DNA from: Coraliomargarita sp.
GTDB lineage: Bacteria; Verrucomicrobiota; Verrucomicrobiia; Opitutales; Coraliomargaritaceae
Assembly (NCBI GenBank): GCA_965216325.1
Contig: OZ244160.1
Location: 704,001 to 768,000 of the forward strand
Reading direction: 5' to 3'
Length of the DNA stretch: 64,000 nt
The notes below the pieces were generated by a model. The model had not been told where the DNA came from, searched no databases, and worked only from the letters and a program-made list of their open reading frames with translations. The translations under genes were made by a program, and so were the position numbers. This document shows, piece after piece, positions 31,728 through 37,391 of the stretch; positions within the stretch are counted from its first letter, which is position 1, and each line of letters starts with the position of its first letter.

Positions 31728-34700
31728 TTAGAGGAATTTGGCTGTTACGCTGCCCTTGGTTTTCTTTAGGCCAGCGACATTGCCTTGGTAGAGCAATTGA
31801 CCTCCGGCATCGCCGCCCTGCGGACCTATCTCGACCAGATAGTCGGCGTCCTTGATGAGGTCGAGGTGATGTTCGATGACGAGGACGGTGTGGCCTTTAT
31901 CGACGAGACGATGCAGGAGTTCGGTGAGGCGCTCGACGTCGCTGAGGTGAAGTCCGATCGTTGGCTCTTCGAGGATGTAGAGGTTGCCTTGACCTTTGTT
32001 GTATTGACGTTCCTTGAAGGTGGGTTGGCCTTTGGCGAGTTCACTGACGAGCTTCATGCGTTGAGCTTCGCCGCCAGAGAGTGTGGGCGAGTACTGCCCC
32101 AGGGTGATGTAGCCGAGGCCGGTTTCGACCATCAACTGCATGAGGCTGCTGAGCTGTGTGTGAAAACTGAAGAACTCGGCGGCTTCTTCGAAACCCATTT
32201 CGAGCACATCCGCGATGCTTTTACCGTTCCAGCGCAGTTCATCGAGTTCGGCACCATAGCGACGTCCATTACAGTCTTCGCAAGTGACATGTGTGTCGGG
32301 CATGAAATTCATTTCGAGCTTCACACGTCCTGCGCCTTTGCAGGTTTCACAACGACCACCCTTGGTGTTGAATGAGAAGGTGCCAGCGGTGTAGCCGCGC
32401 ATGTTGGCCTCGGGGAGTTTGGCGTAGATGTCGCGGATGATATCGAAGGCGCCGATGTAAGTGGCTGGCGTGGAGCGGGGCGTCTTCCCAATCGGGCTTT
32501 GATCCACTTCAATCACTTTGCGAATGCCGTTAGCATGATGCAGTGCTTTGAAGACCACCCCGCCTGTTGGGCACCCCTCCTTGGCAAGGAGGGGAGTTTG
32601 CTTAGACGTGAGTTTTTCCGACTTGTTTTTGATGGCTTCTTCGACCAAGGGCTTGAGCAAGTCGCGGGTGAGGGTGCTTTTGCCTGCGCCGGAAACACCG
32701 CAGATTGCTGTGAGGCGTTGCTTGGGGAATTGCACATCAAAACCTTTGAGGTTGCGGAGTGCTGCACCTTGTAAGCTGATCCAGTTCTCGTTGCCTTTCT
32801 TTTTACGTGGGCTCCACGCCGGAGGCAGTTCGCGGTAGCTGCCGCGCAATGGATGTGACATGCTCTTGCGCAGATACTTTCCAGTGATGGATGTTTTGTT
32901 TTTCTTTAACTGAGTTAGTGTGCCACTGGCGACGATTTCGCCTCCGTGAATACCGGCTGCTGGACCGAGGTCGATGATTTGGTCGGCATGACGCATGGTG
33001 TCTTCGTCGTGCTCGACGACGACCAAGGTGTTGCCGCGGTTGCGGAGTTGCTCGAGTGATTCGATGAGCTTCTCGTTATCGCGGGCATGCAGTCCGATTG
33101 AAGGTTCATCGAGCACGTACAACACTCCGGAGAGGTTCGATCCCAGTTGAGCGGCAAGGCGAATGCGTTGTGCTTCGCCGCCGGATAGGGTGGCGGTGGC
33201 ACGGTTGAGTTGCAGGTAGTCGAGGCCCACGCGATCCATGAAGCGCATGCGCTCTTCAATCTCCGGGAGCAGTTCGGCTAGAATGGGTTTCGTGCGCTTG
33301 CTGGTCTTGATGGACTTTAAGGTTGTTATCAGCTGGGTGGGTGTGAGAGAGAGTAGCTCAGGGAGGCTGACGTTACCACCCCGACCGAGCAAGTCGGTCA
33401 CCCCACCTTGTGAAGGAGGGGAGTTTTTAACTTTTCTTAGTGGGAGGCGAACCGCACGGCTGAGTTCGTTTAGGCGGGTGCCCTGACAGTCCGGACAGGT
33501 TTCGCCGTTCTCAATGCTATCGATGCGATCTTTAAGCGGGCTTTCATCGTCGTCCTCTTTCGCCATCCAATCGAAGAGTTGGCCATAGCCGCGACAGGTA
33601 GGGCACCAGCCGCGTGGACTGTTCCAGGAAAAGTGTTTTGGGTCGAGCTCAGGGAAGGCTTCTCCTGTTGTTGGATCGGTGCGCTTGGTGGAGAGCCATG
33701 ACAAGACTTCGCCTTTGGCTATCATGATGAAGGCACTGCCTTTGCCTAGACGAAGTGCGTCTTTTAGAGTGGAGGGCAATGCTTTGTCATTGCCACCATT
33801 CGTTTGTGTGTAAACGGCGGAGCGCTTCCCTCCAGTCAAATTCGAAATGACCAAGTCGATGTCGTGCTCTTTATAGCGGTCGAGCTTTTTGAACTGTGCG
33901 ATCTCAATGAGTCTCCCATCAATGCGGAGCTGTGTGTAGCCGTGGTCGCGTGCCCAGTTGACCAGTGGCTCATGGTGACCTTTACGACCGCGTATCAATG
34001 GCGCGCATAGCAGGAGTTGTTTCGCGTTGGACTCTGCGAGTATGGTTTTGAGTCGTTTGAGCAGCGCAGCTTCGGATTGGCTGACAACGGCTTCACCAGT
34101 GGTTGGCGAGTGTTGCACACCAATACGAGCAAACATCAGGCGCAGGTATTGCGCGACCTCGGTGATGGTGGCGACGGTCGACTTGCGTGTGCCCTTGGTT
34201 ACGCGCTGTTCAATGGCAACCGTGGGGGCGATGCCGTGTAACTCGTCGACGTCGGCGCGTGGCATTTGCTCAACGAATTGACGTGCATACGCTGACATGG
34301 ATTCCATGAAGCGGCGCTGTCCTTCGGCAAAGATGATATCAAAGGCGAGGGAGGATTTACCCGAGCCTGATACGCCAGTGACGACCGTCATTTTGTTGTG
34401 GTCGATTTGGCAAGAGATGTCTCGTAGGTTGTGTTCGCGTGCGCCACGGATCTGGAGAGAACCACCCCGACTCGGCAAGCGAGTCACCCCTCCTTGGTCA
34501 GGAGGGGAGTTCTTATATGGAGACTGCTCTTCAGCGACTTGTAGTTCGGCGGACGCTGAGGACAGCGTCCCTCCAAGAGCTTCACGAAGATAGACAGCAG
34601 TTTCGCACTTGGCTTGAGCGAGTTGTTCTGGGGTGCCTTCGGCGATGATTTGTCCGCCATTTGCGCCAGCCTCGGGACCGAGTTCGATGATCCAGTCGGC

Positions 34701-37391: not shown

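Follow-up and report, generated by a model that had tools for sequence, protein, structure and literature searches.

In-frame repeats of several families occupy exchangeable slots in the loops of a double-length uvrA gene of Coraliomargarita

Rickettsia palindromic elements are the older precedent for palindromes inserted in frame (available text of PMC10969869). A close described case is that of Opitutus terrae, for which the available text of Di Nocera, De Gregorio and Rocco 2013 (PMC3733652) reports in-frame REPs in a 1,995-aa UvrA (Oter_2709) and a 999-aa UvrA. In-frame REPs, as singles and dimers, are also given there for a 1,889-aa Thioalkalivibrio UvrA, purL, hrpA and an HI0933 gene, a GTGG variant of the REP tag is described in O. 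terrae, flexible loops are discussed, and a bias of intragenic REPs towards repair genes is speculated upon. Repeats inside this gene have been on record since 2013 for O. terrae, but fewer descriptions exist of a rapid exchange of their occupants. The available text of PMC8266576, which also covers the biochemistry of RAYT proteins, treats the spread of REP-like repeats as an open question. A literature search, with most subscription journals outside its reach, found no paper on double-length UvrA classes, on DUF559-linked repeats or on the replacement of one repeat family by another.

The stretch of DNA analysed here (the window) comprises 64,000 nucleotides of contig OZ244160.1 (positions 704,001 to 768,000) of Coraliomargarita sp. 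An earlier note, made from its letters alone, had described six self-complementary elements inside an intact uvrA reading frame and had suggested their targeted or selected insertion into a repair gene. Added to the published picture are control genes that argue against a repair bias, a link to DUF559 genes and evidence for the swapping of slot occupants.

The uvrA2 gene and its six in-frame elements

The gene in question, uvrA2, is a double-length UvrA paralogue, whose frame is open over 1,887 codons (Table 1). Its product passed the NCBIfam cut-offs for UvrA (PRK00349, 1,882 versus 1,147 bits; TIGR00630, 1,840 versus 730 bits) and contains four Walker A, four signature and four Walker B motifs, the last Walker B being EE, as well as eight CxxC pairs. 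For PRK00635, the equivalog of double-length UvrA, it scored 1,114 bits with a cut-off at 3,054 bits. A canonical uvrA (~950 aa, uvrA1) is located elsewhere in the same genome, and 149 of the 201 genomes sampled across the class have a double-length UvrA. In one pairwise comparison with the sister genome, dN/dS was 0.036 for the uvrA2 core and 0.033 for uvrA1; the core is under normal purifying selection, and the similarity of the two values ruled out a relaxed paralogue. The second module lacks the insertion (DNA-binding) domain, and a short acidic linker lies between its zinc-binding halves (~33500-33600). On the same strand, uvrA2 is flanked downstream by an AstE/AspA-domain gene (30998-31726, overlap-close) and upstream by recD2 (37681-39987).

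Table 1. Coordinates of uvrA2, its in-frame elements and an intergenic relative in the window
Feature	Positions	Strand	Location and remarks
uvrA2, double-length UvrA paralogue	31728..37391	(-)	1,887 aa; two fused UvrA modules
Family B REP dimer	36032..36097	(-)	aa 432-454; slot S1, loop in signature domain I, first module
Single REP, B-related family	34549..34575	(-)	aa ~940-948; first part of inter-module linker
Family A double hairpin (DUF559-flanking type)	34461..34509	(-)	aa 961-977; second part of inter-module linker
Family B REP dimer	33770..33834	(-)	aa 1186-1208; slot S4, end of UvrB-interaction domain, second module
Family A double hairpin	33375..33423	(-)	aa 1323-1339; slot S5, loop after zinc cluster, second module
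Family A double hairpin, short subfamily	32554..32596	(-)	aa 1598-1612; slot S6, loop after last Walker A helix
Intergenic sister-type relative of family A	4157..4211	(+)	

All six elements were confirmed within the open frame, and no other gene of the window, including topB, actB, recD2 and dnaK, contained a repeat match. Three further claims of the earlier note held in part. The two families A and B are distinct as proposed, and the sixth element (34549) belongs to a sister family of B. Intergenic relatives in the window, claimed for both families, were found for family A (sister type), with no intergenic match in the window for B and its sister. Self-complementarity was exceptional for the B-type elements, which fold better than shuffled sequences (z = -3.7, -3.5 and -10.0, the last for the 36032 copy), and unexceptional for the family A copies (z = -0.5, -1.0 and -1.9). 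The 36032 copy consists of two inverted 25-nt arms separated by a 16-nt spacer, both arms with 0 mismatches to the genome consensus, and the arms of the 33770 copy carry 4 and 2 mismatches. The B-related single REP has ~10 intergenic copies in the genome, some at loose E-values (up to 2.3). Local hopping of family A inside uvrA2 was rejected, since each of the three copies, which fall into two subfamilies, was closest to a relative elsewhere (88%; copies within 6 kb were excluded from the comparison). Judging from the open frame, the inserts are likely to be translated.

The placement of the inserts in variable loops and in the linker between the UvrA halves, as the earlier note had inferred it, agrees with orthologue alignments and, for five inserts, with a structure model of aa 925-1887 generated from 39 sequences (mean pLDDT 82). 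The four segments with a pLDDT <50 in this model are four of the inserts, and the fifth has ~52; the 36032 insert was placed by alignment only, as a single-sequence model of the first half had a mean pLDDT of 33. Alignments to solved UvrA structures showed gaps or weak matches at the insert loops, and loop length in orthologues varies, with short loops in several genomes and longer ones elsewhere. By orthologue alignment the inserts are lineage-specific, and conserved sequence of equal length was not seen at these positions. A short Ala-Glu...Tyr motif in the inter-module linker (~34510-34545) is kept in most orthologues, with repeats coming and going on either side. An origin as a whole cassette, in which a repeat-DUF559-repeat unit was inserted in frame and then decayed, was not supported: inspection by eye of 12 variable sites in 20 orthologues, most of them long, revealed no DUF559-like insert of domain size.

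Repeat families, partner genes and genome-wide load

The genome (G000) consists of one contig of 3.06 Mb, for which gene calling gave 2,592 ORFs (2,332 kept). A de novo repeat search yielded 95 profiles, 50 of which were dropped as fragments of long elements or as empty; the 45 kept were used together with profiles of families A and B built from seeds that excluded the uvrA2 copies. In total, 769 merged short-repeat elements were detected, 35 of them, including some weak matches, inside 27 genes. Five of these 35 lie in uvrA2 (0.077 expected by length, P = 2e-8; any gene with five matches in 2 of 200,000 permutations), a count to which the single REP at 34549, missed by the profiles, does not contribute. 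Repeat density per kb was 1.53 in intergenic DNA, 0.014 in coding DNA and 0.88 in uvrA2. The hotspot proposed in the earlier note was thereby borne out, since intragenic copies do not occur at equal density throughout the genome. Family A was found at 34 places (30 intergenic, four in ORFs, three of the latter in uvrA2) and family B at 59 loci (51 intergenic, eight in called ORFs, of which uvrA2 contains two and short, doubtful ORFs another two). Other in-frame targets of the two families are genes for a U32-family protein, the adjacent mutY, pxpA and an addA-like helicase; the helicase gene contains half an element, interrupted by another repeat.

In the window, twelve further intergenic elements (2270-29882) belong to other families, and the genome contains at least 12 Y1 transposase-like loci. 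Long near-identical repeats (F20-F57, F82-F94) with ~5-12 copies, resembling insertion sequences or group II introns, were excluded from the counts. The co-occurrence of repeats per intergenic region was 135, compared with 117 or 135 depending on the choice of null, and different families touched in intergenic DNA 11 times, with 10.7 expected by chance. A tendency of repeats to land beside other repeats was rejected on account of this chance-level adjacency.

Family B is a short stem-loop unit, often arranged as an inverted dimer, dispersed and mostly extragenic (85 arms of 25 nt, 32 inverted dimers), in agreement with the description of REPs and REPINs. Its copies bracket a RAYT gene on both sides, and because this gene passes the NCBIfam RAYT cut-off (NF047646, 89.1 versus 80 bits), family B is a REP/REPIN family. 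A truncated version of the RAYT had no Pfam match, and this RAYT was not among the matches listed by a Y1_Tnp search. The units of family B end in NTGG, with a variable first base, as compared with the terminal GTAG tag of such REPs and the GTGG variant described in O. terrae. The dimers have inverted ends, as MITEs do, and no clean empty site was found from which a target-site duplication could be read. The ends of family A carry neither a GTAG nor a CGTC tag, and its partner gene encodes a DUF559 protein rather than a RAYT; this family works like a REP but is not classed as one.

DUF559 genes were bracketed by A-type double hairpins at 4/4 loci (L223-L226), comprising all four such genes found in five genomes. 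The presence of a DUF559 gene agreed with that of family A in 5/5 genomes, three of which have both and two neither (one of these 76% complete). Genes for four-helix-bundle proteins (PF05635) were adjoined by hexamer or heptamer tandem repeats at 6/14 loci (L231-L235, L238; G000 library). One of the PF05635-linked heptamer families fills loops of uvrA2, purL and hrpA in other genera, where it is a genome-wide repeat. RAYT, DUF559 and four-helix-bundle genes are thus associated with repeats, which they may mobilise. The in-gene copies of family A share one orientation (8/8), and the opposite orientation is found in 17/20 copies downstream of genes. This bias is not explained by terminator asymmetry of family A, the mean T count being equal in both directions.

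Occupant exchange and control genes

In the sister genome (G002), at a distance of 0.056 substitutions per site in core proteins, other families were found at five uvrA2 loops and in mfd. Among 519 other orthologue pairs of the two genomes, which cover ~800 kb of the 3.6 Mb of G002, repeat-derived stretches were detected three times in G000 and twice in G002, one of them at the same mfd loop. The loops filled in both genomes differ in family in 6/6 cases, compared with 14/44 intergenic sites, although the loops were hand-picked and their number is small. In ~93% DNA-identical contigs (runs X5 and X6, possibly one strain), 79 other bases replace 106 across S1, and the five uvrA2 elements other than S1 are retained. 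The uvrA2 loops thus behave as fixed slots with exchanged occupants.

The comparison was extended to 34 distinct metagenomic uvrA2 orthologues, obtained from 50 of 56 loci examined out of 80 matches. Family B is present at S1 in six lineages scattered on the core tree, in which support for deep nodes is weak. The starting nucleotide is identical in all six, with spacers that differ (16 nt in five) and arms with 0-7 mismatches. This pattern stems either from repeated arrivals of family B at S1 or from an old insert, renewed in some lineages and written over elsewhere. Within a single clade, at 2-7% divergence, S4 is filled by either a B dimer or a related single REP, with a left junction common to both, and two lineages (G014 and L326) only ~0.05 substitutions per site apart differ at S1.

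Exchange of families was also seen between genes. Among 314 syntenic intergenic regions compared between G000 and G002, 44 are occupied in both genomes, 14 of these by different families, and many of the 14 appear, by eye, to hold one element at about the same place and of about the same length. A family absent from the G000 region was present in 18/85 occupied and 14/229 empty regions (P = 2e-4), with the same direction in all four length classes and no excess in convergent regions (7/22 versus 3/9). The old family was kept in 4/18 regions with a newcomer, and the resident family was missing from 41/67 regions without one. Repeats are under-detected in G002 because the library was built from G000.

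Ten genes, with 14-22 sequences each from 20 genomes of the family, were surveyed for loop extensions of at least 6 residues, which were called repeat-like upon a library match, tandem periodicity or an inverted repeat. Such calls were obtained for 51/159 extensions and for 36/477 random control segments, with the reservations that controls may overlap inserts, that kin are not independent and that the library stems from G000. Repeat-like inserts per 1,000 aa amounted to 0.80 in uvrA2 (8 sites), 0.70 in purL (2 sites), 0.30 in hrpA, 0.13 in mfd and 0.04 in dnaE, and in the same survey none were found in uvrA1, uvrB, rpoC, carB and smc. In purL (L154), mfd (L089) and hrpA (L195), one or two loops each are filled by different families across relatives, some of them nested. 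Low expression as the cause was rejected, as codon bias and dS, a crude proxy with rpoC as the sole reference, failed to separate hit from unhit genes. Because purL is similarly loaded, uvrA1 and uvrB are empty and the dN/dS of the core is normal, the uvrA2 hotspot probably reflects the number of tolerant loops rather than repair function or relaxed selection.

Interpretation and relation to known systems

We consider it slightly better than an even bet (probability about 0.55) that tolerated loops serve as long-lived, near-neutral slots for repeats. Each repeat family would be kept alive by the small partner gene that it brackets (RAYT for B, DUF559 for A, four-helix-bundle genes for the heptamers). 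Insertions into coding DNA would be purged almost completely, as the densities suggest, and only a few surface loops, placed by model and alignment, would tolerate a copy in frame, in one frame and orientation. The single orientation of in-gene family A copies is what such a filter would give. Once filled, a loop would remain a slot through a putative ratchet, only in-frame, loop-confined changes surviving, and its occupant would be exchanged over time, as seen across relatives, for whichever family is active. The lead of uvrA2 would then stem from its ~8 tolerant loops, where purL has two and hrpA and mfd have a single one each; translation of the inserts probably gives disordered, near-neutral loops in a protein that works. 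We count in favour of tolerated slots the densities, the low pLDDT of the inserts, the rates in control genes, dN/dS, the bracketing of DUF559 and RAYT genes and the orientation, together with the swapping of families at intergenic sites and the in-frame REPs of O. terrae in the same genes. Several points stand against them. By a rough estimate, the intergenic density predicts <1 element for ~400 bp of tolerant loop, compared with six observed; the same family at the same nucleotide in at least five separate lineages is not accounted for by tolerance alone. The 6/6 family differences in the small, hand-picked set of filled loops exceed the intergenic proportion, all six elements stem from A- or B-type families, which make up ~12% of the family counts of the genome, and no terminator-like asymmetry accounts for the orientation bias.

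Active replacement in place is a doubtful alternative, in which a resident hairpin is the target and one family overwrites another at a fixed junction, in loops and intergenic DNA alike, either through cleavage of the hairpin by a partner nuclease or through recombination via ends that the families have in common. A GGAG-type start is found in families B, its sister, C and D; the common start of family B at S1 despite differing spacers, the alternation at S4 from a shared left junction, the S1 differences between close lineages, including the ~93% identical relative altered at S1 only, and the excess of newcomers in occupied regions, where the old family is seldom kept and swapped elements often match in place and length, all fit. 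On the other hand, different families are not adjacent above chance, the excess is absent from convergent regions and subject to under-detection in G002, and because so many regions lose their resident without a newcomer, losses and gains that occur independently at favoured sites could look like replacement. With slightly more confidence, although still tentatively, we propose that, in this bacterial family, unrelated repeat families, each with its own nuclease-like gene (RAYT, DUF559 or four-helix bundle), may compete for fixed slots and overwrite one another in place; the uvrA2 loops would record this competition, with frame and junction preserved through changes of occupant within 3-7% DNA divergence. 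An adaptive role, whether through mRNA hairpins that adjust uvrA2 expression or through loop turnover that varies a surface bound by a phage protein or a partner, is unlikely. The very fast turnover at S1, the near-perfect arms at silent positions, the terminator-like antisense scores of two family A copies and the position of S4 at the UvrB-interaction domain could be read in this sense. However, several orthologues keep short loops (G018, G003 at S5, G021), the same behaviour is seen in purL, hrpA and mfd, recent arrival or conversion would be expected to leave perfect arms, and the terminator scan, a pattern match only, gave 14 sites versus 7.4 +/- 3.0 in shuffled sequences. The suggestion of the earlier note that the inserts are selected signals was not supported; with occupants of the same slots exchanged even among very close relatives, a conserved function of any single insert is hard to maintain. 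Its second suggestion, a preference for repair genes, which Di Nocera and colleagues had also raised and which might arise if such genes were transcribed when DNA damage induces the partner nucleases, is very improbable. It can draw on mfd, mutY and the addA-like gene among the 27 targets and on the many repair genes in the list of Di Nocera 2013, as given in the available text of PMC3733652; set against this, the canonical uvrA1 and uvrB each had 0 events in 20 sequences, purL had 13 repeat-like events in 14, and most targets are metabolic or cell-envelope genes with codon bias that does not distinguish them from unhit genes. The remaining alternative, that loop alleles are exchanged between species by recombination, so that distant lineages come to carry the same insert, is more improbable still. 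Alleles at S1, S4 and S6 do match in lineages ~75% identical to uvrA2, while the sister genome differs; yet in a sliding comparison identity did not rise beside the slots (62-72% to L332), and because of this flat flanking identity recombination across species at the slots appears unlikely, with the differing spacers pointing the same way.

Loops of a conserved gene provide anchored sites at which the arrival and loss of repeats can be followed through many lineages. Should slots be overwritten actively, they would reveal a little-described competition between selfish repeats, with DUF559 and four-helix-bundle genes as repeat mobilisers; it would offer a testable route for the spread of REP-like elements and a first mobility role for DUF559. 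If they are not, uvrA2 is a good but ordinary case of tolerated insertions. The suggestion of 2013 that repair genes are special fails here once control genes are used.

Like double-length UvrA of PRK00635 and canonical UvrA (PRK00349, TIGR00630; PDB 2R6F), uvrA2 is built from complete UvrA modules, two in number, with intact motifs; it differs in staying under the PRK00635 cut-off, in standing beside a canonical uvrA and in the missing insertion domain of its second module. Rickettsia palindromic elements likewise fuse in frame with conserved or housekeeping ORFs, but according to the available text of PMC10969869 they are ~150 bp long and nearly half lie in ORFs, whereas the elements described here measure 27-66 bp and ~5% (35/769) are in ORFs. 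With the REP/REPIN-RAYT (TnpA-REP) system, as outlined in the available text of PMC8266576, family B shares the inverted REP dimer bracketing a RAYT gene and the mostly extragenic location; it differs in its NTGG rather than GTAG ends and in having some copies in frame, and family A has a different partner gene. The GTAG REPs of O. terrae and Thioalkalivibrio are also close, with in-frame copies in uvrA, purL and hrpA there as in the genomes compared here. In the available text of PMC3733652, however, two inserts are reported per gene, all from REP families and mostly at different sites between species, whereas uvrA2 contains six, its loops are shared with DUF559-linked and heptamer families, occupants swap between close relatives, and control genes speak against a repair bias.
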